NCBI GenBank assembly: GCA_037481775.1
Contig: JBBFKZ010000028.1
Coordinates: 1-15,554, forward strand
Reading direction: 5' to 3'
From: Candidatus Bathyarchaeia archaeon
GTDB lineage: Archaea > Thermoproteota > Bathyarchaeia > Bathyarchaeales > Bathycorpusculaceae
DNA: 15,554 nucleotides
Shown in pieces: positions 4,008 through 15,554 of this stretch (position 1 is the stretch's first letter; every line of letters begins with the position of its first letter). The translations under genes were made by a program, and so were the position numbers. Below the pieces are notes generated by a model, which was not told where the DNA came from, searched no databases, and worked only from the letters and a program-made list of their open reading frames with translations.

Positions 4008-6176
4008 TTAATCCTTTATAATACTCCAAACTTGACAATAGCCATTAGAGTAAACTTGGTTTTGGATAGCCAGCTGATTAATTAGAGTAGTAGTGTTCCA
4101 AAACTGCCCACCTGACAGACCACTACAGAAAACGATGTTCTCCAAACGCAAATAAACTAATGAGCCTAAGTCAAAGCGTTGAGTGCTATTAAACAATGCT
4201 GGAAATCGCCAGGTAGCTAACAGACCGTAACTTAGCAAAACATGTTCTATTGAAGGATAATCGCCATATACAAGAGTATTATTAGCAATGTTTTTTGAAA
4301 GCCAGACAGCACCAAATAAATCTTGATCAGGAACTATAAAAGAATAGACATTGCACCCGCTAATGTCAGTCTTTAATCTTCTCCAACTCAGAGGTAGAGA
4401 CCAACTCTGATCGTTTGCAATTTCGTAAACGAATCCTATGTTAAAAAAAAAGTTGGGTATTAAAATTCCAACTGTAATTAGCCACACAGATAGTTTACTC
4501 AGTTTATTCTTTTGGGATTGATGAAATTTACCAATAATGCAAACAATTGCGTTCCAACCTAAAATTACAGCAGGCGCTGCAACCAAGAGAACTGTTTGGA
4601 AGAACCTTTCTGTACGGAAAGTGTTGGCCAAATTCGGTACAAGAATAACAAGAATTAATAATGAAATATTTGTAATAATAAAAATGAGATATTCAAAATC
4701 TATTCTAACATTTTTTGGTTTATAGAGAACTGCATATATACAATATAAGAAACCAAAAATCGCCAATAGTTCTATCAAATAAAAGAAAAATCGACCTATT
4801 TGATGTAAAAAAGAGACGGCTTCAGTTAAACCGATTCCACTCAGCACTTCTCGACTTCGAGCTTCTAAATTCAGGAAATCTGTAAAAAAATTTTGCATAA
4901 CGCGGTCCAAGCTACCTATAAAAGAATCAAATGCGACACCATTAGCCACGAAAATATGCCAACAAAAGGTGATTACAAGAAAGAGCAGTACGAAGCTTAT
5001 GTTAAGTTTTGATGCAGACTTTTTAAAAAAATGTAGAGCAAGAAACACCAATAAGGTTGAAAATAAGAAGATATATGCGAGGGAATAATGAGATACTATA
5101 AGGGCAAAGGCAAAAACCGATAAGAAAACACCCTTTCCTAAGGAGTTAAAATTTTTCTGAAAAAACACAAAAAACAGTGCAATATAAAAAAGTTGGGCAA
5201 CAATCTGCTTATTTGAGCCCCAACCATAGCTCATTGAAACAGTTAAGAAGAAAAATGATGCCAAGAAAGCCCATTTTTTTTCAAATTGGGTATTAAATAG
5301 GAGGAAAGTACCCATAACAACAAAAGAGGCAACCATTGGATAAAAGAATTTAAAAAACCAACTTCCGTCAAAATTTAAAATTTTTGAATACATAGTGGGC
5401 AAGATTGTTACACTTAAAGACGCAAAGCCTTTTTGAACGGAGTCACTTCCAAACGGATAATTCAAAAGCCAAAGCTCATCTTTTTCAACCACTTGGAATA
5501 CGTAATATTCACTATGGGCATCCCAACCAACTACATTATTTGTAATCAGCGAAGAATTCACAAAAGCTAGCAAACTTACACAAATTACCATAACAAATAT
5601 TGAATAAAAATCAGAATTTTGAATTTTTTTATATTTAAATGCGCAAATAATACAAATTGGAATTATTGCCACCACGAAAAGCAAAATTAGATTATTTCCA
5701 TAGATGTTAACTAAAAATATACCTACAGCGCCAGCCAAAGCAAAGAAAAAGAATAAGAGCAGAACACTAAAGGACAAATTCAAACCAACTGATGATGAAC
5801 TAATAAAAGTACCTTTATTTTCTCGTAAAAAATTGAAAATATTAATTGGGAGTAAAAATAGGGTCAAAGTAATAAAAAGGGAATTTGTTGATAGCGGATT
5901 AGACACATTCAAAGCAGGATAAACTAAATTAATGGACAGCCCTATGATCAGCAAAAGTGCAAGACTTAATGAACTAGAGAGAAAAATCATTTCAGCGGAA
6001 TGTAACTTGATTTTTAGGGCTTTTAATAGAGTTAAACCTGGAATAAAAGTCAGGTAAAAAAATCCAATTACTTGACGCAGTATGGGAATTTCGAAAAACA
6101 GAGCTATTGATATCAAAATTTGCAAGATAATTGTAACGAGCAACAAGCTTTTAGATGAAAAATAGTTTCCTGACAT
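4008..6176 (-). CDS. DUF2206-like polytopic membrane protein (possible GT-C-fold glycosyltransferase or polymerase)
   Basis: About 720 aa with many hydrophobic helices; RQVIGFFYLTFIPG, GWDAHSEYY, SLSVTILPT, ALIVSHYS, and a soluble C-terminal domain (GAVWLSKN...VYSNG). This pattern is recalled from archaeal DUF2206 proteins. ATG 6176 is preferred over GTG 6185 because GTGA there looks like the SD. Confidence 0.75.
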   Translation of the reverse strand: MSGNYFSSKSLLLVTIILQILISIALFFEIPILRQVIGFFYLTFIPGLTLLKALKIKLHSAEMIFLSSSLSLALLLIIGLSINLVYPALNVSNPLSTNSLFITLTLFLLPINIFNFLRENKGTFISSSSVGLNLSFSVLLLFFFFALAGAVGIFLVNIYGNNLILLFVVAIIPICIICAFKYKKIQNSDFYSIFVMVICVSLLAFVNSSLITNNVVGWDAHSEYYVFQVVEKDELWLLNYPFGSDSVQKGFASLSVTILPTMYSKILNFDGSWFFKFFYPMVASFVVMGTFLLFNTQFEKKWAFLASFFFLTVSMSYGWGSNKQIVAQLFYIALFFVFFQKNFNSLGKGVFLSVFAFALIVSHYSLAYIFLFSTLLVFLALHFFKKSASKLNISFVLLFLVITFCWHIFVANGVAFDSFIGSLDRVMQNFFTDFLNLEARSREVLSGIGLTEAVSFLHQIGRFFFYLIELLAIFGFLYCIYAVLYKPKNVRIDFEYLIFIITNISLLILVILVPNLANTFRTERFFQTVLLVAAPAVILGWNAIVCIIGKFHQSQKNKLSKLSVWLITVGILIPNFFFNIGFVYEIANDQSWSLPLSWRRLKTDISGCNVYSFIVPDQDLFGAVWLSKNIANNTLVYGDYPSIEHVLLSYGLLATWRFPALFNSTQRFDLGSLVYLRLENIVFCSGLSGGQFWNTTTLINQLAIQNQVYSNGYCQVWSIIKD

Positions 6177-6191
6177 AAGAATCACATTTGA

Positions 6192-7079
6192 TTAAGTCTT
6201 TTTAATTTGCCCACTCGCAAAACCTATAAAAAATGCAAATCTTTTGAAACTGTATTGGATAGGTAACAAAAAAACCCGCTTTTTATGATGCAACATATAT
6301 GCAATTTTTGAGTAAAGTAAGCCAGCTATGAAACCTCCAAAAGGAGACAATTTAATTAAGGAAATGACACCAGGAGCCATTCTGTAGATAAGATGAATTT
6401 TATAGCCATGCCAATAGCCTTCTTTCCAGAGTTTGCACCAACTCTTTCTTCGCAGCTCGTAAAAAAAGGCATTCGTCCCTAAAAAAAGCAGCCAGCCTTT
6501 TTTTCTTATACGATATTCAATATCTAAATCTTCACCGGCACCTTTGATGTTTTCATTGAACCCACCAACTTGTTTAATGGCATCCACCCTATATATAGAA
6601 CCGCCTGCACCAAGTGAGCGCTCTGTGACACCGCTGTACTTAAAATCAACAGCTTGATATGCCGCATTTTCTAAAAAACCAACAAGATTTTCTTGAGCAT
6701 GATTTGCGTATCTAGCTTTAGCGATGCCGATTCGCGGATTTTTTTCCATAAAATCGACTTGTTTCTTTATGTGATCAGCAGGCAATATCATATCGCCATC
6801 TAACCAAATTATATACTTACCACTTGCATTCTGAGCAACCAAATTTCTAGCGCTACCTAGACCTGCCCATTGCCTTTCGAATAGCTTGACACGCATATCT
6901 AAATTGGGTAGATAATTTTTGATTAGCATAAGAGTGCGATCTTCGCTACCGTCATCAACTATTATGAGTTCAATTAAATGATGTGGGTAATGCTGGTGCA
7001 CGATACTCTGTAAGGCCATTTCAATCGTTTCTTCAGAATTTCGAACACAAATTCCTACAGTAACTAAAGGGCCATGCAA
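6192..7079 (-). CDS. Glycosyltransferase family 2
   Basis: VTVGICVRN, IIVDDGSED, ARN, WLDGD (DxD), VGGFNE, GEDLDI. Start placed at TTG 7079, 8 nt after AGGTGA; the ORF-track GTG at 7091 is inside that SD. Confidence 0.93.
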   Translation of the reverse strand: MHGPLVTVGICVRNSEETIEMALQSIVHQHYPHHLIELIIVDDGSEDRTLMLIKNYLPNLDMRVKLFERQWAGLGSARNLVAQNASGKYIIWLDGDMILPADHIKKQVDFMEKNPRIGIAKARYANHAQENLVGFLENAAYQAVDFKYSGVTERSLGAGGSIYRVDAIKQVGGFNENIKGAGEDLDIEYRIRKKGWLLFLGTNAFFYELRRKSWCKLWKEGYWHGYKIHLIYRMAPGVISLIKLSPFGGFIAGLLYSKIAYMLHHKKRVFLLPIQYSFKRFAFFIGFASGQIKKT

Positions 7080-7133
7080 AATCCAGATCACCTATTGAAA
7101 TAAGTTATCATGAGTATAATAGCTTTTAGCAAA

Positions 7134-8291
7134 TTATCGAGTGCTAGAAATTTTTTCCCATATATGGGCATCTTTTCTTTTTATCAAATCAATTAGTGCA
7201 ATAATCGCATAAACTTGAAGAGAAAAGAAGTCAAAGAAAAATAGCACAATTTTTCTCAAGTTCATCGACCTATAATATAAAATGCTCAATAAAATAACAG
7301 CCATTACAAATAATGCAACAATTGAGCTAGGACTAAAAAAGTTAAAAGCAAAATATGACACGTTTACACTAAATAAAAACAACGCCATAAAACAAAGAAA
7401 TGGACCAACGGTCATTTGCAGAAAATGTATGGGAAAAATCAGTAGACCATACAGCCCATATTTAGGATTAAAAAATAAATCAAAGTTTTTAATCATAACT
7501 TGCATGATTCCAAGGATATGCCGAACTTTTTGAGTCTTAGTTTCCCGCCTGCTAGCAGGCAGTTTTTCTTTGACAACCACTTCTGGCGCATATTTAATCT
7601 TGAAATTCTGTTTTCTAATATTCATAGCAATTTCTAGATCATCTGCAGCAACGCGTTCATCAATCTTATTTATCAGATCTTTTCTGAAAGCGAAAAGTTC
7701 TCCAAATACTATAAACACACTATCTATATCAGATTCTAGTTTTTTGTAAATATGGTGAAACCAATAAAATACGTTGTTCCAAAGATTCATTTCGCCACTT
7801 GGCATGAATCTAGGTAAAACGGCGCCTATGCCCTTTTCAAAATTTTTAACAAGGGTATTGATAGAAGTTGGCGTAAATTCGGAATTTGCATCGCTTATTA
7901 CAATTATTTCGCCTCTCGCTTTTGCTAAAGCAAAATTCAACGCATTAGCCTTGCCCAATCGCTTTGCTTGCTCTAGAAGGATTACACCTTTATTGGTATA
8001 TTCTGAAACTATAGCTTTAGTATTGTCAACGGAACCTGAATCAACAACTATGACCTCATAAGAATCACGTGGAAGATCTGCAGATAAAAGTGATTCAAGC
8101 TTCTGTCGAATAACTCTTTCTTCATTATACGTGGCAATTATCACCGATACACTTGCAGGAGATACAGTGTTTAAGCTTAAACGCTTTTTTTTATAAGATA
8201 AACTAACTAAAAATAAAATTGGCAGATACAGAAAATATAGAATAAAGAGACCAAGCAAAGTTACAATAAAACACAAAAAAATTAAACTCAA
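7134..8291 (-). CDS. Membrane-bound glycosyltransferase family 2 (PgaC/IcaA/cellulose-synthase-like architecture)
   Basis: N-terminal TM helix; SVIIATYNEE, VVDSGSVD, GKANALN, ISDAN, GELFAFR, AADD, QKVRH (QxxRW position); two to three C-terminal TM helices. Confidence 0.9.
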   Translation of the reverse strand: MSLIFLCFIVTLLGLFILYFLYLPILFLVSLSYKKKRLSLNTVSPASVSVIIATYNEERVIRQKLESLLSADLPRDSYEVIVVDSGSVDNTKAIVSEYTNKGVILLEQAKRLGKANALNFALAKARGEIIVISDANSEFTPTSINTLVKNFEKGIGAVLPRFMPSGEMNLWNNVFYWFHHIYKKLESDIDSVFIVFGELFAFRKDLINKIDERVAADDLEIAMNIRKQNFKIKYAPEVVVKEKLPASRRETKTQKVRHILGIMQVMIKNFDLFFNPKYGLYGLLIFPIHFLQMTVGPFLCFMALFLFSVNVSYFAFNFFSPSSIVALFVMAVILLSILYYRSMNLRKIVLFFFDFFSLQVYAIIALIDLIKRKDAHIWEKISSTR

Positions 8292-8336
8292 TTTTCACAG
8301 GCACCTTAGAAATTATTTCAACTTTTTTATCGAAAT

Positions 8337-9218
8337 TTAGAAACTGGCCTTGTTGAAACCATAAAACCAAGCTATCATTTTTAATGTGAAGTGAATGGGC
8401 AGTAAGAGCATTTTTTTAGATTTTGTTATTTTATAACCTTGCACTACATACATTAGGGAGAGAATGAAGCTTGCTATTGGATTTATTTTGTAAAGAGAAA
8501 ACAACTGTCTATTTTTTAAAAGCAGCTTGCGGCTGTAAGCCCCCCGACTTACATATCTACGCCACAGTACGCTCCAAGACCCGAGGCCACCATGCTTTTC
8601 ATAAAACACTGCAGTCCCATTCACAATTAACCAACCTCTATCCTTGATTCTTTTAGCAATATCTATATCCTCACCCAAAGTATCGACACTTTCATCAAAC
8701 CCACCAACCTCTCTTGCAGCAGAAACTCGATAAATGGCGCCACCTGTACCAGGAAGTTTTGCGGACGAATTGAAATTTACATAAGCATATTCTATAATAT
8801 TAGGAACAAGATCAAGGGCGAGAACAAGATTATCATCATGTGAAAAGCCAAGTCTTGCCACACCAATACCCGCTTTAGGATTTTGTTCCATTAAATTGAA
8901 CTGTTTGCGAACAAAGTCCTTTTCGAGTATTTCGTCGCTATCTACCCATAAAACATACTCGCCGGCTGCATTGTTTAAAACGATATTTCTTGCCTTCCCA
9001 ATTCCACTCCAAGGTATAGGAAAAAAATTTGCAAGCACGTCGCTTTTTGCAATCATACGCTGTGCTATTCTTAGAGTATCGTCGGTGCTACCGTCATCTA
9101 CGAATATTATCTCAAGTTGATCATGCGGAAAATCTTGGGCTATGACACTTTCAATAGCGTGCTTTATTATTGCTGCAGAATTTCTTGCGCATATTCCAAT
9201 GGTCACTTTTGGTTTCAT
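8337..9218 (-). CDS. Glycosyltransferase family 2
   Basis: MKPKVTIGICARN, FVDDGSTD, ARN, WVDSD, VGGFDE, GEDIDI. The likely start is ATG 9218 (or TTG 9221); the longer ORF-track start overlaps the PIG-L gene by 104 nt. Confidence 0.93.
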   Translation of the reverse strand: MKPKVTIGICARNSAAIIKHAIESVIAQDFPHDQLEIIFVDDGSTDDTLRIAQRMIAKSDVLANFFPIPWSGIGKARNIVLNNAAGEYVLWVDSDEILEKDFVRKQFNLMEQNPKAGIGVARLGFSHDDNLVLALDLVPNIIEYAYVNFNSSAKLPGTGGAIYRVSAAREVGGFDESVDTLGEDIDIAKRIKDRGWLIVNGTAVFYEKHGGLGSWSVLWRRYVSRGAYSRKLLLKNRQLFSLYKINPIASFILSLMYVVQGYKITKSKKMLLLPIHFTLKMIAWFYGFNKASF

Positions 9219-9279
9219 CAAAATCACAATGTTTAATTTGAGACCGCGGTTACCAATTGCAAATACCACAAGCGAGCAA

Positions 9280-9954
9280 TTATGTAAAGAACATCTCCCG
9301 GTTTTTAAGAAAACGCGAAACGTCAGTAATAACAGGTCGTTCCTGCCTGTCTGAAATAATGCCGATTTGGCTTTTATATTCATTGATTATCTCACGTTTC
9401 TTTTGAATAAAGCCAGACACGTCTACATAAAATACGTTGTGCAATATTGGATTTAAAACGCGGGCTAATAAAGGAGATAAGCGAGAGAACTTGGTAGCTA
9501 TAGAATACTTGAAATGTAAAATTGTCTTGTTTATTTCCCTAATGCAATAAGCAATTATCTCACTTGTAGCGGCATGATCGATATTGACATCTCTTTCATA
9601 AGGGAAGTATACTTCAGTTGGCTCTAACCTTTTTAGTAGGAGAAGCGCTTCCTTTCTGAGGCGCTCCTTATGGTAACATACTTTGCCATCTTCAAAATTA
9701 AAGAATATCAAATTTTCGCTGTGCACACCTAACACTTTTGCCGCCGCGTAAGCTTCATTGATTCTCATTGCCTTTAACTCTGCAGGAGATGGATTGAAAG
9801 ATATACCAAATATGTCTGAAAGCGCATTTTCTCCACAAGTAACAAAGACTATGAAAATTTCCCAACCTTCGCTAATGCGTTTAGAGAGTGTCCCGCCGCA
9901 ACCAAGGGCTTCATCATCAGGATGAGGAGCAAATACAACAAGTTTTTTTTCCAA
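9280..9954 (-). CDS. PIG-L/LmbE family N-acetylhexosamine deacetylase
   Basis: VFAPHPDDEALGCGG, VTCGE, RINEA, NIDH, YKSQ. GGTGG upstream of the TTG start. Confidence 0.92.
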   Translation of the reverse strand: MEKKLVVFAPHPDDEALGCGGTLSKRISEGWEIFIVFVTCGENALSDIFGISFNPSPAELKAMRINEAYAAAKVLGVHSENLIFFNFEDGKVCYHKERLRKEALLLLKRLEPTEVYFPYERDVNIDHAATSEIIAYCIREINKTILHFKYSIATKFSRLSPLLARVLNPILHNVFYVDVSGFIQKKREIINEYKSQIGIISDRQERPVITDVSRFLKNREMFFT

Positions 9955-9994: not shown

Positions 9995-10726
9995 TTAACC
10001 AGAACTTGAGCAAAAAAGATCTGGAGAAGTGGATAAATGTAATTTGAAAATAATGTCGCGTATTTTAGGAGGCAATTTGATGCAAGGTATTAAACGCAGA
10101 ATCCTTTTCAAGTTATTTTCATAATCTTTTGTATTTCCAGTGATGAAGCAAAATCGAAAACCAATAATCTTGACAACAATAACCGTGCCCATTTCGTGAA
10201 AACCAACCTTTAAGTAAAGGTTAATTGCGCGCTTGTTTTTTACGTAAACAGAAAGATAGAATCTTTTCACATCTTGGGAACAAAACGTAGGAATGGAAGC
10301 AAGCAGTTTTTTTCCAATACCTTGATTTCTAAAAGTTGAAATTACATATATCCCATATATGTATAAGGAACTTTGATCAAAATATAAGGGTACGTCGAAT
10401 ATTGGAGGAAGAACCAGACCACTACCAAAAAAAGAACAAGATGCTAAAGAACCATGAATTATTCCAACTATGCCTCTATTGCAATTTTTAGGCTCTAAAC
10501 GTTTATGGAACTTTAAGATCTCTGGGATATCACCGTTTTCAATGCACCGAATAACCAAATCCTTAATTGAAACAATCCTCGATGAAGAACCAAGACTATT
10601 TCTAGTTAGCCAATAATATGGGGTAATTTGAATAGTATTATATTTATAGGCGTAGTGTGCAAGCATTGAAATCAGTTTGAAAGCTAAGTTGGTAAACGCC
10701 GCAGATTTATGGGAGATACTTGCCAA
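9995..10726 (-). CDS. GNAT family N-acyltransferase
   Basis: YIYGIYVISTFRNQGIGKKLL (acetyl-CoA-binding motif A) and NKRAINLYLKVGF (motif B). Overlaps the upstream ATP-grasp gene by 20 nt. Confidence 0.85.
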   Translation of the reverse strand: MASISHKSAAFTNLAFKLISMLAHYAYKYNTIQITPYYWLTRNSLGSSSRIVSIKDLVIRCIENGDIPEILKFHKRLEPKNCNRGIVGIIHGSLASCSFFGSGLVLPPIFDVPLYFDQSSLYIYGIYVISTFRNQGIGKKLLASIPTFCSQDVKRFYLSVYVKNKRAINLYLKVGFHEMGTVIVVKIIGFRFCFITGNTKDYENNLKRILRLIPCIKLPPKIRDIIFKLHLSTSPDLFCSSSG

Positions 10727-11930
10727 AAGCCATCCCTAACTTGTTCCATATTTTTTGCATAAAGGCCAAGGCATATGAGGGACAGACAAAAAATGGAGTA
10801 GCAATAAATGGCAAAAGGTCTTTGACGTTGAAATATGCGAAATCCTTCACGTTGCTATATGAGAATAGCCAATCAAAAAGCCCAAGCTCACCATTATGAA
10901 ACAGGGTAATTGCAGAACAAATATCATTAAAAAAATGAACCCATTTAAGACCAGCCCGGTAATTTTTATTGAAAGGAACTTTTAAGCCAACTGAGTCCAA
11001 GAAAGCAATTAAGACTAAATTTAGACCACATGCGGTTGGAAAAAAATTTTGCCACCAAGGGCGCGCATTAATTTCGATAAGCTTAAAAACATCATCCCGC
11101 GCATCACGTTTAAATTCTGCTTCAAACAAGCCATAATACTTAATTTTCCTAAGATAATCCAATAGGGAGCATGTAACACCTTCAACTTGTTTAATTGGAA
11201 TACTCTCAATTAAGCTATTGCAGCCAAAATCAAGTGGCCATCCTCGAATTCGGCGATAAGCAAAAAGCCCCTTCAGCTGATGATCTTTATCGATGTACCC
11301 AGCCAATCCGTAAACATTAGACTGCGGTCCTGGAACAACTTCTTGCAAAACCACAGATATACGATATTTCCTCACTTGTGCAATATAAGTTTTGAGCTCA
11401 AAATAATTCTCTGCTACAAAACTTTTTACATTAAACATCCAAAAATTTTGAGTAATAGTAGGTTTTATTAAAACAGGATAAGTTAAATCACGTGCAACCA
11501 TATCGACTTGATCCAAAGCTACGATGAGGGTAGCTGGATGTGCCAATTGTGAATTAACGAGAGACTTAGCAAATAACGCTTTATCAACTAGTGTCTTAAC
11601 AGAGCGAGGGTTAGAGGAACACAAATACTTTTTATCTAGATAATCACAAATATTGGATATTGCAAGGCAAAACAGATCAGAAGCGGGAAAAATAATTATT
11701 TGACCCGAAACTTGAGCTGCAAACGTTGATAGGAAAGATTGCAAAATTTTAAGATCATGCTCAATCTGCGGAATTACAAAATATTTTGAACAATATCGAG
11801 AAAAAGCAACTTCATTTAAAGTTTCACCAACACAATAAACCTTCACTCCATAGATCCCCAAATTCCGGCAAATTCCCAATGCAGTAACCGCGGAACCCCC
11901 GAGAACTAGCGCGCAATAAGAAGATCTCAC
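10707..11930 (-). CDS. ATP-grasp carboxylate-amine ligase (D-aspartate-ligase-like)
   Basis: ALGICRNLG, FSRY, FPASD, DK, YPVLIKP, LQEVVPG, FEAEFKRDARD, LIEINAR. GAGGT SD upstream of the GTG start. Confidence 0.88.
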   Translation of the reverse strand: MRSSYCALVLGGSAVTALGICRNLGIYGVKVYCVGETLNEVAFSRYCSKYFVIPQIEHDLKILQSFLSTFAAQVSGQIIIFPASDLFCLAISNICDYLDKKYLCSSNPRSVKTLVDKALFAKSLVNSQLAHPATLIVALDQVDMVARDLTYPVLIKPTITQNFWMFNVKSFVAENYFELKTYIAQVRKYRISVVLQEVVPGPQSNVYGLAGYIDKDHQLKGLFAYRRIRGWPLDFGCNSLIESIPIKQVEGVTCSLLDYLRKIKYYGLFEAEFKRDARDDVFKLIEINARPWWQNFFPTACGLNLVLIAFLDSVGLKVPFNKNYRAGLKWVHFFNDICSAITLFHNGELGLFDWLFSYSNVKDFAYFNVKDLLPFIATPFFVCPSYALAFMQKIWNKLGMAFGKYLP

Positions 11931-11990: not shown

Positions 11991-13214
11991 TTAGGTGTAC
12001 ACATGGGATTTGACAAAACTTTTCAAAATTCTTACTCGCGCATTTATTACAGCTTGTGTAACCTTGTTAGGTAAGTAGCTGGCCGCTGTTCCGGGTCGAT
12101 CTTCATATTTATAAATTTCCACTTTGGAAAACTGTATTTGAGTAATCACAGATAAAGACTTCTTAAAATCGGCATCAGTTTCTCCGGGAAATCCAACCAT
12201 AACATGTGTTTCAATGTATAGATCAGGAAAAGTCCTTCTCAAATTAAGCAGACACCTTTTCACCTCGTTTATTTTATAATTCCTTTTCATTAATTTAAGA
12301 ACACGATCACTCCCTGACTGTAAAGGAATTACAACGCCTTCAAGTTTTTCGCGATTTGCCTTAAAGATAGATAGCAACTCCGGATAATACTTAACAAACC
12401 AGTGCGGATTAAGATCTGCTAAACGTATTTGGTACCGGCCATTTATTTCAAAAAGTTTCTTTAATAACATAGGCAAATTTGTTCCTATATCAACTCCGTA
12501 GCAACCTATGTCACCGCCAAATACTAAAAAGTCAGTATAACCTTTTTTCAGACCTTCTTTGAAATTTTCCAATATTTGACTTTCAGGTAAACTATGAAAC
12601 TTTTCCATAGCGAGTTTAATCGCGCAATAGCTACAGTTATTGAGGCACCCTCTGGAAATTTCAAGCCTATACCATTTTTTATTTGGTGTGTTGTTCGCGG
12701 ATAATAACTTGTTAAAGACAAAGTATAGGGTTTTAGGAAAATTATCTTTGGATTTGATGCATCGCTTGATTCTTTGCGGAAAACTGCCATGATAGAGATC
12801 ATGAACACCTTCGATGGTTCCTGAATGCGCAATAGTTGAATAAGGCACCTTTGCCTCAATCAACGAATCCAACTTATCTAAATCAGCAGTATGTATTACT
12901 AATATATCATTGTAAGCTTTAAGCGCATCAGGTCTAATTTTTGTTAAGCAACCAGTAACTACAAGTTTAGCCGACTCTGACTTTACTTTCAAAGCATGCT
13001 CTATCGTTAAAAGAGAAAACTCTTCGTGTAACGCAAAACCGCCACATGTGGCGACAAAAATGAAAGCGGCTTTTTGTGGATCAGAAACAGGTTTCAATCC
13101 ATTAGCTACAAGATATCTATAAAGTCTTGTAGAATCCAAACTGCGCCGAGGGCAGTGAATCTTACAATAAATATAGAAAGTTTTTACATCATTTTGCTTC
13201 AACCACATCACCAC
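11991..13214 (-). CDS. Radical SAM protein, methylthiotransferase (MiaB/RimO/MtaB)-like, apparently lacking the TRAM domain
   Basis: UPF0004-type N-domain cysteines C21 (HCPRRSLDS), C57 (VATCG) and C89 (VVTGC); CxxxCxxC at ISRGCLNNCSYC (C190/194/197); GDIGCYGVD, PLQSGSDRVLKLMKR, MVGFPGETDADF, YEDRPGTAA. The real start may be TTG 13202, after GGTGA. Confidence 0.9.
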   Translation of the reverse strand: MVMWLKQNDVKTFYIYCKIHCPRRSLDSTRLYRYLVANGLKPVSDPQKAAFIFVATCGGFALHEEFSLLTIEHALKVKSESAKLVVTGCLTKIRPDALKAYNDILVIHTADLDKLDSLIEAKVPYSTIAHSGTIEGVHDLYHGSFPQRIKRCIKSKDNFPKTLYFVFNKLLSANNTPNKKWYRLEISRGCLNNCSYCAIKLAMEKFHSLPESQILENFKEGLKKGYTDFLVFGGDIGCYGVDIGTNLPMLLKKLFEINGRYQIRLADLNPHWFVKYYPELLSIFKANREKLEGVVIPLQSGSDRVLKLMKRNYKINEVKRCLLNLRRTFPDLYIETHVMVGFPGETDADFKKSLSVITQIQFSKVEIYKYEDRPGTAASYLPNKVTQAVINARVRILKSFVKSHVYT

Positions 13215-13291: not shown

Positions 13292-14419
13292 CTAATCGCG
13301 CTGAAGTTTTGCGATTGAGTCAAGTAAAGCATCAACCACATACCGAGAGGTATCATAATCTATTCCCAAATGCATTGGCAAACACAAGACCCTTTTCAAT
13401 ACAGTCTCAGCAACAGGAAAAGCGCCCACCAGCTTAAAGTTTTCAATGTACCATGGATGGAGATGACATGGAGGATAATACAAACTGCCAGTTTCAATAC
13501 CATATTCACTTTTTAAAATAGACGCTAATTTATCTCGATTTATATTTTCGGCTAAACGCACAAGATATTTATAGTAACTATGCCGAATATTTGCAGGAGT
13601 TTTAAAGAGTGAAAGCTCGGAACTTTTACTCAGCAAAGTTTCATAAACTCGTGCAATTTCGTTGCGCAGCCGCACAAACTCTTCCAACATGGATAGTTGA
13701 TATTTTCCAATTATTGCAGTTATTTCGCTCATACACCAGTTATTTCCAAGAGACCTCATGCGTCTATCTGAATCAAGGCCATGATCTTGCATACTACGAG
13801 CAAAACGAGCTAAATCAGAGTCGTTGGTTGTTATCATGCCACCTTGCCCGGTTGTTATGACCTTTGTAGGATAAAATGAGAAAGCAGCACCATCAGCCAA
13901 GTTACCGGCCATTTCACCGTCGATCATCGCACCATGAGCATGGGCAGCATCCTCGATTAGAAATAGGTTATTATCTTGGCAGAAGCTACGTATCTCTTTA
14001 ATATCTGGGCAAATTAACCCGGCGATATGGACAGCTATTACACCCACGGTCTTTGAAGTTAGACACCGCCTTATATTCTCCAAATTTATGCACAAAGTAT
14101 CTTCAGAAATGTCGGCGAAAACTGGCCGGCCGCCTGAAAGTAAGACAGAATTAGGAGTTGCAACGAAAGTGTTTGTAGGCACAATAACATCTTTACCTTC
14201 TACATTAAAATATCTGAGCATAATTTCCAGAGCAGCACTTCCGGAACTTACAGCAATAGCATATTTGGCTTTCACGTATTGCGCGAACTGCGTCTCAAAA
14301 TCCTTAATATGTGGACCGTCAGTTAACACACCGCTTTTCAATGTTAACTTTATATCATTTAATATGTTACCTATGCTTTGATCATCGAAAAAAGGCGATG
14401 AGGAAAAAACTTTGGACAT
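13292..14419 (-). CDS. DegT/DnrJ/EryC1/StrS family PLP-dependent sugar aminotransferase
   Basis: AVSSGSAAL, VPTNTFVAT, IEDAAHAHG, FSFYPTKVITTGQGG (PLP lysine), LCLPMH. ATG 14419 is preferred as start. Confidence 0.95.
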   Translation of the reverse strand: MSKVFSSSPFFDDQSIGNILNDIKLTLKSGVLTDGPHIKDFETQFAQYVKAKYAIAVSSGSAALEIMLRYFNVEGKDVIVPTNTFVATPNSVLLSGGRPVFADISEDTLCINLENIRRCLTSKTVGVIAVHIAGLICPDIKEIRSFCQDNNLFLIEDAAHAHGAMIDGEMAGNLADGAAFSFYPTKVITTGQGGMITTNDSDLARFARSMQDHGLDSDRRMRSLGNNWCMSEITAIIGKYQLSMLEEFVRLRNEIARVYETLLSKSSELSLFKTPANIRHSYYKYLVRLAENINRDKLASILKSEYGIETGSLYYPPCHLHPWYIENFKLVGAFPVAETVLKRVLCLPMHLGIDYDTSRYVVDALLDSIAKLQRD

Positions 14420-14463
14420 TAAAACCACTTTATACCATAAATGTGACCAACGAAAAAATAAAT

Positions 14464-15180
14464 TTAAAGACCAAAATATGTGTTATTTGAATTCAAAAAC
14501 AGGTTAATTAGCTCATCTATACTATGCACGCTACGCTCTGCCTCATACTCTTCAGGCATCTTTACAAACTTGAATTCACCGATCAACAAACGTATGGTCC
14601 GCATTCCAAGTTTTTTTGCGCCCCAGAAATCAGTATGAGGATTGTCACCAACGCAAAGAGTCTCTTCAGCTTTGGTTCCAAGCAACTCAAGCGCTTTAAT
14701 ATACACTTGAGGATTTGGCTTTTCAAGCGACGCCGCTACCTCACGAGCGAATAGAATTACATCAAAATACTTTTCAAGTTTTAGTAGCTTAATTTTGTTT
14801 CTTTGAATCTCGACGCAGCCATTTGTTACTAAAGCCAACTTTACTCTTTTCTTTCTAAGCACGCGAAGCAGCTTTTTTATGCCAGGATACGTTCGAAGAT
14901 TGGGCGTTACTTGGGCGTATATTTTTAGTATCTCAGGCAGCAAAGCTACATCAAGATCTAGATCCAAAAGTACATCATTGAAAAGTCTTGGGTACATACT
15001 TGTCTTTTTATGTAGTTCATCAAGCAACTTCTTATAAATTACTTGCTCAGATAACCGACAAATAGAAGCAAGAAAACGGGCTATTTCGCAATAAGCGACA
15101 TCAACATAAGTTCGCTCATCGTAAAGAACATTATCAAGATCAAATATTACTGCCTTGATTCTGACCAAAATTGAACACAA
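14464..15180 (-). CDS. HAD-superfamily hydrolase (subfamily IA-like phosphatase)
   Basis: IFDLDNVLYD (motif I), LVTNG (II), EKPNP (III), VGDNPHTD (IV). The exact start is uncertain. Confidence 0.93.
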   Translation of the reverse strand: MCSILVRIKAVIFDLDNVLYDERTYVDVAYCEIARFLASICRLSEQVIYKKLLDELHKKTSMYPRLFNDVLLDLDLDVALLPEILKIYAQVTPNLRTYPGIKKLLRVLRKKRVKLALVTNGCVEIQRNKIKLLKLEKYFDVILFAREVAASLEKPNPQVYIKALELLGTKAEETLCVGDNPHTDFWGAKKLGMRTIRLLIGEFKFVKMPEEYEAERSVHSIDELINLFLNSNNTYFGL

Positions 15181-15186
15181 TCCAAG

Positions 15187-15554
15187 CTAAGCTAAGGTAT
15201 AGTATTCTTTGAAATATCGAATCATCATTACTCTGTCCTTGACAGCTATATGCGGAATTTCTTCTCCGAGAGCCATTTTCAACGCGTAATAAATCAAGTT
15301 AGCACCAGCAGCACTGCAAAAAGCGGTTGATGCAGCAATTCGCGGGTTAAAATCAAAAGGCAAAGGGGCACCCGTATCGTCACGCGCCATCTCTATGTTC
15401 ACAGTGTAATCAAAACCAAAAGCTTGACTAATTTTTGCAGTCATTTCTTCAATATACGGATCTTTTTTCACCAAACCGATGATCGTCTGACTGGGATTAC
15501 CGAGCACACGCAGTTTTGGCACGATTACCAGTGCTTTACCATTTTTTGCCAAGA
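15187..15554 (-). CDS. ATP-grasp domain protein, C-terminal part (truncated by the window edge)
   Basis: IVPKLR...VNIEM...FDFNPRIAAS...AGANL matches the ATP-grasp C-terminal E/D-x-N-P-R motif. The frame is open to the right edge. Confidence 0.8.
   Translation of the reverse strand, partial: LAKNGKALVIVPKLRVLGNPSQTIIGLVKKDPYIEEMTAKISQAFGFDYTVNIEMARDDTGAPLPFDFNPRIAASTAFCSAAGANLIYYALKMALGEEIPHIAVKDRVMMIRYFKEYYTLA

Follow-up and report, generated by a model that had tools for sequence, protein, structure and literature searches.

What does a radical S-adenosylmethionine (SAM) enzyme of the methylthiotransferase (MTTase) type act on when it has no TRAM domain and its gene lies among genes for sugar tailoring? 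The question is raised by a gene in a contig of Candidatus Bathyarchaeia archaeon (JBBFKZ010000028.1), which we analysed over its whole length of 15,554 nucleotides (nt) and refer to as the window. A passage of Anton et al. (2010; PMC2952846) describes a tripartite structure as common to all MTTases. Passages of a 2023 article (PMC10702137) give tRNA and ribosomal protein S12 as the sole known MTTase substrates and state that archaeal genomes generally encode one MTTase; according to an excerpt of a 2026 article (PMC13389010), methylthiol transfer has been characterised for macromolecules only. We regard it as solid that the window encodes a second, TRAM-less, two-cluster MTTase-type enzyme of a distinct uncharacterised clade, which is accessory and is located in a sugar-tailoring cluster. 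A small sugar-linked substrate is plausible but unproven. As judged from sequence data, the probability that the protein is an accessory MTTase-type enzyme which thiolates or methylthiolates such a substrate is roughly 0.5.

An MTTase-like protein without a TRAM domain

A single intact open reading frame (ORF) fills positions 11991..13214 exactly. It is encoded on the minus strand, has a GTG start and yields a protein of 407 residues; the plus-strand frame over the same positions is riddled with stop codons. Gene callers in public collections use an alternative start, a TTG at residue 5, which results in 403 residues. The gene and its parts, in the order of the protein and with the evidence in brackets, are as follows (AF2, AlphaFold2 model).

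11991..13214, minus strand: TRAM-less MTTase-like radical SAM gene (ORF, Pfam, NCBIfam, AF2, Foldseek)
12909..13154, minus strand: UPF0004 (MTTase N-terminal) domain, residues 21–102, with C21, C57 and C89 (PF00919, E 3.1e-9)
12663..12908, minus strand: extended linker, residues 103–184, of which residues ~150–180 are partly of low confidence (family alignment, AF2)
12153..12662, minus strand: radical SAM core, residues 185–354, with C190-x3-C194-x2-C197 and His337 (PF04055, E 2.3e-22)
12000..12056, minus strand: C-terminal single helix, residues 387–405, where canonical MTTases run on into the TRAM barrel (AF2)

An earlier note on this DNA, made from the sequence without database searches, had pointed out C21, C57 and C89, a CxxxCxxC motif and the sequence HCPRR in place of the usual GCxxN motif. 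All of these, with their residue numbers, are correct in the translation; the strand had been left unstated. Its claim that the protein has no TRAM domain was borne out by domain searches, as Pfam detected UPF0004 and Radical_SAM in the 407-residue protein and nothing else. The translation reads R373-P-G-T376-A-A378, and 29 residues follow between YEDRPGTAA and the stop. The TIGR00089 model (MiaB/RimO) aligned over model positions 9–361 of 429 only, with a score of 236.9 bits, just under the cut-off of 251 that delimits the curated family. Scores for the equivalog models were all far under their cut-offs: 200.8 against 357 for MtaB, 197.7 against 314.7 for e-MtaB, 177.1 against 357 for RimO (TIGR01125) and 146.2 against 355 for MiaB. 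The B12-binding domain PF02310 was not matched at E ≤ 0.01, and TIGR04013 and TIGR04014 matched weakly, far under their cut-offs. Compared with the tripartite family, the protein has the UPF0004 Cys triad and the CxxxCxxC core, and has neither a C-terminal TRAM domain nor a score above the family cut-off. It is neither an e-MtaB nor a RimO, with scores under both equivalog cut-offs and a placement outside both clades.

The AF2 model, computed from 84 homologs (mean pLDDT 91.5, pTM 0.88), ends in one helix, with no beta-barrel. Between the stop codon and the next gene there are 60 nt, so that there is no room for a frameshifted TRAM domain. The source assembly comprises 1.82 Mb in 54 contigs and is 96.7% complete; the window is one whole contig of it. 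A genome-wide search for TRAM (PF01938) and TRAM_2 (PF18693) matched one place, the C-terminus of an MTTase encoded on contig 18. A separately encoded or frameshifted TRAM domain was thereby ruled out. The contig 18 gene encodes a full tripartite MTTase (UPF0004, Radical_SAM, TRAM) which scores 426.6 bits with the e-MtaB model TIGR01578 (cut-off 314.7). The possibility that the TRAM-less protein is the only MTTase of the genome was ruled out by this complete e-MtaB. The earlier note had asked for a check on a separate canonical enzyme, and had named the discovery of a TRAM domain or the status of sole copy as grounds for abandoning its proposal; neither applies, because no TRAM domain was found and the protein is not the only copy. 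Four further genomes (G061, G062, G063 and G065) each contain a canonical MiaB, MtaB, RimO or e-MtaB besides the TRAM-less protein.

In a profile search against solved structures, RimO (4JC0, E 8e-61) was the best match, followed by MiaB (7MJV, E 1.8e-43). Foldseek placed MtaB 9a6d (TMq 0.75), MiaB 7mjz/7mjw and RimO 4jc0 (0.73) at the top, over a range of 0.69–0.75 and at E ~1e-24 to 1e-26. As modelled, the fold is that of MtaB, MiaB and RimO. AprD4, TsrM, TokK, OxsB and CysS are distant fold matches (E 1e-10 to 1e-13). With RimO of T. maritima (4JC0), a beta-methylthiotransferase that acts on Asp88/89 of S12, the window protein shares the three-Cys UPF0004 domain, the CxxxCxxC core and the PxQSGS, GFPGE and RPGT-type motifs. 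It differs from RimO, which has a C-terminal TRAM-type barrel, by the absence of any such barrel, by CPRR in place of GCPKN, by His337 in place of Asp, by a longer linker and by its position in a separate clade. To our knowledge, RimO is the one known MTTase acting on an sp3 C–H of a non-RNA substrate. The tRNA A37 2-methylthiotransferases MiaB (7MJV–7MJZ), MtaB and e-MtaB show the same two-cluster architecture and fold. Unlike the window protein, which is outside all four canonical clades, they are tripartite with a TRAM domain.

A separate family with invariant cysteines

The 120 best homologs from a word-index search are 39–71% identical to the window protein and ~350–480 residues long, the closest relative among the matches listed being 71% identical. 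Both PF04055 and PF00919 were found in 116 of them and PF04055 alone in four; none has a TRAM domain. In their source collections these proteins are named MiaB, MtaB, CDKAL1 or plainly ‘radical SAM protein’. A scan of one genome per species revealed 80 loci. The archaeal ones belong to Bathyarchaeota, Thermoplasmatota, Woesearchaeota, Micrarchaeota and Nanoarchaeota; the bacterial ones to Coriobacteriia, Thermoleophilia, Desulfobacterales, Syntrophales, Planctomycetota, Aminicenantes, Bacillota, Bacteroidota, Cyanobacteriota, Bdellovibrionota, several phyla of the candidate phyla radiation (CPR) and others. The proteins of all 80 loci have a short tail. From the CxxxCxxC motif to the C-terminus we counted 214–228 residues in the TRAM-less proteins examined, in comparison with 271–314 in canonical MTTases. 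Beyond the position of window residue 405, the median is 6.5 residues (maximum 46) in the family and 69 (minimum 60) in canonical proteins. We define the family by a UPF0004 and a radical SAM domain and by an end within ~50 residues of the RPGT motif, all of which are found in the window protein.

A profile search of 1.84 billion representatives at 50% identity returned 8,246 proteins at E ≤ 1e-30, a number that probably includes canonical MTTases. The best 150 of these all score at least 338 bits, and nearly all of them are 360–440 residues long with a match that reaches the C-terminus. Pfam and NCBIfam (June 2026) hold no family-specific model, and clusters of the TRAM-less family in a protein atlas carry generic names only. 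Metagenome contigs contributed close relatives at two loci only, both 50% identical. No TRAM-less MTTase, nor any MTTase acting on a sugar or small molecule, was found in the full-text literature searched, to which subscription journals and supplements do not belong; the supplementary trees of Anton et al. (2010) could include such a clade. The observed architecture is far beyond chance, given the 71% identical closest relative, the absence of TRAM in 120 of 120 listed homologs and the conservation of the cysteines in 78 of 78 aligned rows.

The phylogenetic tree was calculated with IQ-TREE (LG+C20, quick search) from 92 rows and 401 columns. TRAM columns are absent from the alignment, being filled in under half of the rows. 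Of the rows, 78 are TRAM-less and 14 canonical, the latter taken from five genomes which also hold a TRAM-less member and labelled by NCBIfam equivalogs (three MiaB, two MtaB, two RimO, two e-MtaB, and five unlabelled or borderline). Partial rows were omitted (L070, L047, L060, L049, L052 and L054), and L090, which is identical to L089, was not entered. One branch (SH-aLRT 98) separates all 78 TRAM-less rows from the 14 canonical rows. On the canonical side, e-MtaB (support 100), RimO (99), MiaB (97) and MtaB (99) were recovered; the e-MtaB clade includes L001, L098 and L094 and excludes the window protein. Nesting within the canonical tRNA enzymes, which would have spoken against the earlier note, was thus not observed for any canonical tRNA or S12 MTTase clade. 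The window protein groups with L089, from a metagenome, and L009, from Bathyarchaeota (support 99), and the next neighbour of this group is a clade of Coriobacteriia/Actinobacteria (support 83). Archaea and Bacteria are intermixed across the tree, which points to horizontal transfer. As the tree is unrooted, ‘sister family’ is meant as a cautious wording. On these alignments we consider it solid that the TRAM-less proteins form a coherent, large and uncharacterised clade distinct from MiaB, MtaB, RimO and e-MtaB.

None of the 78 family rows lacks any of the six cluster cysteines. The pattern PxQ...L..M.R, the GFPxE motif and C-terminal Arg positions are common to the family and to canonical MTTases. 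Other positions distinguish the two. Arg23, which follows the first Cys-x, is present in the window protein and in 58 of 78 family rows. G-C-x-x-N occurs in all 11 canonical rows that align there, and the Asn is not among the four commonest residues of the family at that position. At the position before VGFPGE, His337 is shared by 75 of 78 family rows; in the canonical rows, Asp (10/14) or Thr (4/14) occupies it. Between the third Cys and CxxxCxxC, family proteins have a median of 96 residues and canonical MTTases one of 73. Cys238 seemed conserved in close relatives, but is present in only 18 of 78 rows family-wide. The invariant cysteines, together with the sequence and fold matches to MTTases, make an MTTase-like mechanism with two [4Fe-4S] clusters the most likely one for the protein. 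By analogy with MTTases, the auxiliary cluster is assigned to C21/C57/C89 and the radical SAM cluster to C190/C194/C197.

The same residues could belong to a radical SAM enzyme acting on sugars or glycosides, in which the N-terminal cluster serves electron transfer or substrate anchoring and no sulfur is inserted. Oxidation, epimerisation, dehydration, C–C bond formation or, with B12-dependent partners, methylation could be its reaction. Auxiliary clusters of other radical SAM enzymes do serve non-sulfur chemistry, and the family has replacements at canonical MTTase positions (Asn24, Asp337). The sugar-acting AprD4, with its N-terminal Rossmann-like domain, appears lower in the fold list. Like AprD4, the enzymes TsrM, TokK, OxsB and CysS are radical SAM proteins with N-terminal Rossmann-like domains and small-molecule substrates, encoded in glycoside or natural-product clusters. 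Yet these enzymes bind cobalamin or another auxiliary cluster and are without the UPF0004 Cys triad, which is invariant in the family. Whether compared by sequence or by structure, its best matches are without exception MTTases, which lead widely at E 1e-24 or better in comparison with 1e-13 for TsrM and AprD4, and every characterised UPF0004-bearing enzyme that we know of is a methylthiotransferase. An enzyme without sulfur insertion is accordingly judged unlikely.

It is very improbable that the protein is a decaying or non-functional tRNA MTTase paralog that lost its C-terminus. The score under the TIGR00089 cut-off would fit such a paralog, as would a homolog (L070) that is split into two ORFs. 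Here, the ORF is intact and the AF2 fold confident, the catalytic cysteines are invariant, the family is large with its best 150 representatives at or above 338 bits, and the clade is distinct from e-MtaB rather than consisting of truncated e-MtaB. The split homolog is itself from Bathyarchaeota, is 50% identical and occupies two adjoining ORFs, 9995-10396 and 10396-11223 (L070:9995-11223). To judge from this locus, the split reflects a frameshift, a pseudogene or an error of assembly; no glycan gene is located within 6 kb of it.

The gene is sparsely distributed among relatives of the source organism. At E ≤ 1e-40, there was no match in any of the five other genomes of the genus, nor in any of 24 genomes that belong to the same order but to different families. 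Within the GTDB family 3 of 36 genomes matched; two of these contain TRAM-less proteins of another subclade and the third a TRAM-bearing e-MtaB. This distribution in genus, family and order is consistent with an accessory gene.

The gene row and the loci of the closest relatives

The MTTase-like gene is located inside a co-directional row on the minus strand, whose genes are separated by short gaps or overlap. The other members of the row are listed in the direction of transcription, with domain matches in brackets (GT2, glycosyltransferase family 2; PLP, pyridoxal phosphate).

15187..15552, minus strand: ATP-grasp protein (ATPgrasp_Ter, ‘Ter-operon biosynthetic pathway’ type), cut by the contig end (PF15632, E 1e-11); 6 nt to the next gene
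14464..15180, minus strand: HAD-IA phosphatase-type hydrolase (HAD_2, E 4.8e-28; TIGR02253 under cut-off); 35 nt to the next gene
13292..14428, minus strand: DegT/DnrJ/EryC1-type PLP sugar or cyclitol aminotransferase (PF01041, E 3.3e-104); 77 nt upstream of the MTTase-like gene
10707..11930, minus strand: ATP-grasp-like ligase with weak matches (PRK12767-type, E 6.5e-11, under cut-off; CPSase_L_D2, E 0.0093); 60 nt downstream of the MTTase-like gene
9995..10726, minus strand: GNAT N-acyltransferase (Acetyltransf_1, E 1.4e-10); 20-nt overlap with the ATP-grasp-like gene, 40 nt to the next gene
9280..9954, minus strand: PIG-L/LmbE-family de-N-acetylase (PF02585, E 2.6e-25)
6192..9383, minus strand: three GT2 glycosyltransferases, 8337-9383, 7134-8291 and 6192-7091 (PF00535, E 4e-27 to 4e-31)
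4008..6185, minus strand: DUF2206 polytopic membrane protein of 725 residues at the end of the row (PF09971, E 8.5e-50), after a 6-nt gap from the GT2 gene

Because the first ATP-grasp gene is cut by the contig end, the cluster extends past the contig and its first genes are unseen. The closest solved structures of the DegT protein are Gln:scyllo-inositol transaminase, perosamine synthetase and QdtB; those related to the PIG-L protein are LmbE/BshB and diacetylchitobiose deacetylases. A sequence search of the PDB gave no match for the ATP-grasp-like ligase at 10707..11930. The DUF2206 protein may transfer or polymerise the product of the row. From the annotated gene set we infer that a sugar or cyclitol could undergo amination, de-N-acetylation, re-acylation or aminoacylation by enzymes of the row before it is transferred. 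Beyond the row, genes for a GH5 glycosidase, a DUF362 protein and a Gfo/Idh/MocA oxidoreductase are found.

The glycan-modification setting proposed in the earlier note is upheld, as both the window cluster and the loci of the two nearest relatives are glycan or sugar-tailoring clusters. The L089 locus (50% identity) encodes a Wzx-like flippase, a hexapeptide acyltransferase, a GT2 enzyme, a sugar nucleotidyltransferase, an epimerase/dehydratase, two sugar C-methyltransferases and two nitroreductase-family proteins. At the L009 locus (48% identity) there are genes for a GT4 and two GT2 enzymes, a hexapeptide acyltransferase, DUF2206-like ORFs and PIG-L; a TylF-like methyltransferase gene lies directly upstream and a FemAB-family aminoacyl transferase gene directly downstream of the homolog. 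Glycan-related genes also adjoin more distant members. In the Desulfobacterales clade (nine loci), polysaccharide deacetylase (-1), His phosphatase (-2), GT4, GNAT (+1) and GT28-type genes were found, and GT4 and DUF354 genes adjoin the homologs of Aminicenantes and Eubacteriales and at L012. An N-acyl or aminoacyl transferase recurs in these neighbourhoods, namely ATP-grasp and GNAT in the window, FemAB at L009 and L037, hexapeptide transferases at L089 and L009, and GNAT in Desulfobacterales.

A glycan gene lies within 6 kb in 5 of the 7 lineages that make up the 22-row subclade of the window protein; the Coriobacteriia lineage and L010 are without one. The binomial P value is 0.016 with a background of 5/19 and 0.001 with a background of 17/119 (both defined below); as the lineages were delimited post hoc, this excess is only suggestive.

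Substrate and reaction

If the protein acts as an MTTase-type enzyme on a small sugar-linked substrate, one SAM would methylate a sulfide on the auxiliary cluster (C21/C57/C89), and a second SAM would be cleaved at the radical SAM cluster (C190/C194/C197) to give a 5'-deoxyadenosyl radical. This radical would take a hydrogen from an unactivated C–H, and the substrate radical would capture -SCH3 (or -S-). Rather than tRNA or S12, the substrate could be an amino sugar or aminocyclitol of low molecular weight that is linked to a nucleotide or lipid. Alternatively, it could be an N-acyl or aminoacyl group which the neighbouring ligase or acyltransferase would have placed on such a molecule once it was aminated or de-N-acetylated. 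Incorporation of the product into a surface glycan or glycoside would then fall to the GT2 enzymes and the DUF2206 protein. The reaction that we infer is methylthiolation of the sugar or of its aminoacyl substituent.

A number of observations weigh against this assignment, beginning with the neighbourhoods of homologs in general. We counted loci with a glycan gene within 6 kb by means of 13 glycan-family seeds, used in a single pass or as HMMs (hidden Markov models) iterated on the joint database. Besides all family loci, 50 representative loci were considered, hand-chosen as one per terminal clade. As controls served 19 arbitrary 13-kb windows of the same five genomes, and 119 13-kb tiles of the window's genome with the window contig excluded. 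A first count without control had given 31 of 82 family loci. The results of the later counts were as follows.

All family loci: 21/82 single-pass, 32/82 iterated
Representative loci: 10/50 single-pass, 17/50 iterated
Control windows: 4/19 single-pass, 5/19 iterated
Own-genome tiles: 13/119 single-pass, 17/119 iterated

Representatives do not differ significantly from control windows (Fisher P 1.0 single-pass, 0.77 iterated). Compared with own-genome tiles, P was 0.14 for the single-pass and 0.006 for the iterated count, only the latter reaching this level. A family-wide glycan association of TRAM-less homologs, on which the earlier note had made its proposal depend, is therefore not supported at 17/50 versus 5/19, and is not claimed here. 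The neighbours from which that note argued, a sugar aminotransferase and an amide ligase, are not conserved either: of 80 loci, one has DegT nearby and three have ATP-grasp, and PIG-L (1/80), HAD (1/80) and GNAT (0/80) are equally rare. In the Coriobacteriia/Actinobacteria sister clade, feoB and dnaE flank the gene, which is a housekeeping context.

A Pfam tally of the 96 immediate (±1) neighbours in the 50 representative loci, from which proteins of more than 900 residues were dropped, revealed radical SAM proteins as the commonest class (13, of which 7 are B12-binding), followed by P-loop AAA_18 proteins (7). Glycan families account for ~11 (GT4 3, Bac_transf 2, GT2 2, Polysacc_deac 2, FemAB 2). 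The frequency of radical SAM and B12-binding neighbours favours the enzyme without sulfur insertion that was considered above. The heterogeneous neighbourhoods indicate that the family is functionally heterogeneous, and the glycan reading is confined to the subclade of the window protein.

The absence of significance against control windows and the feoB/dnaE context also suit a different explanation, namely an MTTase that modifies a macromolecule (RNA, a ribosomal or another protein) and manages without TRAM by a basic surface or a partner in trans, the glycan setting being incidental. The window protein has a pI of 9.4 and a net charge of ~+21; the median pI is 9.0 for TRAM-less cores (78 rows) versus 7.5 for the 14 canonical cores. 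A basic core would also suit RNA or another polyanionic substrate, and low genomic G+C may contribute to it. As a means to distinguish RNA from small-molecule substrates, pI and charge turned out not to be discriminating; if anything, they favour an anionic substrate. According to a passage of Anton et al. (2010; PMC2952846), TRAM is not the substrate discriminator. Also against the assignment to MTTase-type chemistry on a small substrate, neither the Asn of the canonical G-C-x-x-N motif nor the canonical Asp ahead of VGFPGE is retained.

The earlier note had taken the loss of TRAM as a sign of a small-molecule or glycan substrate. This argument is weakened by three CPR genomes with a second MTTase-family hit above the TIGR00089 cut-off (288–319 bits), which ends at about model position 361 in ORFs of 329–346 residues (G066:C36:15405-16421, G067:C9:35085-36101 and G070:C59:3338-4030). 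By their sequences, these are apparently a second, independent kind of TRAM-less MTTase. As hits that pass the cut-off are also short, the TRAM domain can disappear with no apparent shift in role, and its loss does not by itself prove that the substrate is new. Two DPANN genomes yielded the TRAM-less protein as their sole hit (E ≤ 1e-20).

A partner in trans is suggested by a distant clade from CPR, DPANN and Bacilli, with 18 loci (including L064, L078 and L086) whose MTTase-like proteins are 28–30% identical to the window protein. Their cassette, for example L078:6719-10303, consists of genes for a Gfo/Idh/MocA protein, an AAA_18 P-loop protein, the MTTase-like protein and a protein of ~287 residues without Pfam match. 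The AlphaFold model of the last is confident (pLDDT 91.0), and a G-S...D-x-D motif of the Pol-beta nucleotidyltransferase type was recognised in it by eye. Foldseek gave no match to it at E ≤ 0.001. With VIA-align, its C-terminal domain (~210-286) matched the OB folds of single-stranded DNA-binding proteins and of aminoacyl-tRNA synthetase anticodon-binding domains at a borderline Z of 7–8.1. According to this model, the OB fold of the partner could act in trans as a substitute for TRAM in the CPR/DPANN/Bacilli clade. In the window's genome, contig C17 carries three tandem paralogs of the partner (C17:14750-17693; hmmsearch E 4e-15, 1e-11 and 2e-9), with no MTTase-like gene adjoining.

For the window protein itself, a macromolecular substrate is nevertheless doubtful. 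The genome has its complete e-MtaB, and a gene that was found in none of five congeners and is rare in the GTDB family is unlike a modifier of the translation apparatus. It is 60–77 nt from its neighbours in the co-directional sugar-tailoring row, and both closest relatives are also located within glycan clusters. The protein belongs to a clade of its own with changes at otherwise canonical positions, and this genome encodes its homologs of the OB-fold partner on a different contig, where they adjoin no MTTase-like gene.

A small sugar-linked substrate is therefore retained as the preferred reading, and a more extended version of it may be put forward tentatively. The window protein would then be the first example of a third substrate class of MTTase-type enzymes, with a thioether or thiol formed on an unactivated carbon of an amino sugar, an aminocyclitol or an amide-linked aminoacyl or acyl group. 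The archaeal surface glycan or glycoside would be sulfur-decorated, several hundred TRAM-less relatives from Bacteria and Archaea would form a reservoir of catalysts for small-molecule C–H thiolation, and the OB-fold partner may redirect the chemistry to nucleic acid in at least one clade.

A widespread sister family that keeps both Fe-S sites, is without the macromolecule-binding TRAM and occurs in accessory biosynthetic clusters makes MTTase chemistry on small molecules or glycans testable. If it takes place, it would explain orphan methylthio metabolites, add a tailoring reaction to glycan and natural-product biosynthesis and correct the widespread mis-annotation of family proteins as MiaB, MtaB or CDKAL1. 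If it does not, the family would still show how MTTases recognise macromolecules without TRAM.

Fused and duplicated forms occur in the family. A word-index search for longer fused forms returned none at E ≤ 1e-40; three longer forms (P0139, P0154 and P0219) are among the best 150 representatives. In P0154 (861 residues), a B12-binding radical SAM module precedes the MTTase-like module, which is a point in favour of chemistry other than sulfur insertion. P0219 (1,245 residues) begins with MurB_C, the C-terminus of UDP-N-acetylenolpyruvoylglucosamine reductase, followed by two MTTase-like modules; as a single sequence, it is a lead toward nucleotide-sugar chemistry, not evidence. One fused representative has an unannotated N-terminus of 308 residues. 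A metagenome-assembled genome of Thermoplasmatales contains two TRAM-less paralogs in tandem (L037:7214-9769; ~231 and 229 bits to the window protein), with a FemAB-like gene adjoining.

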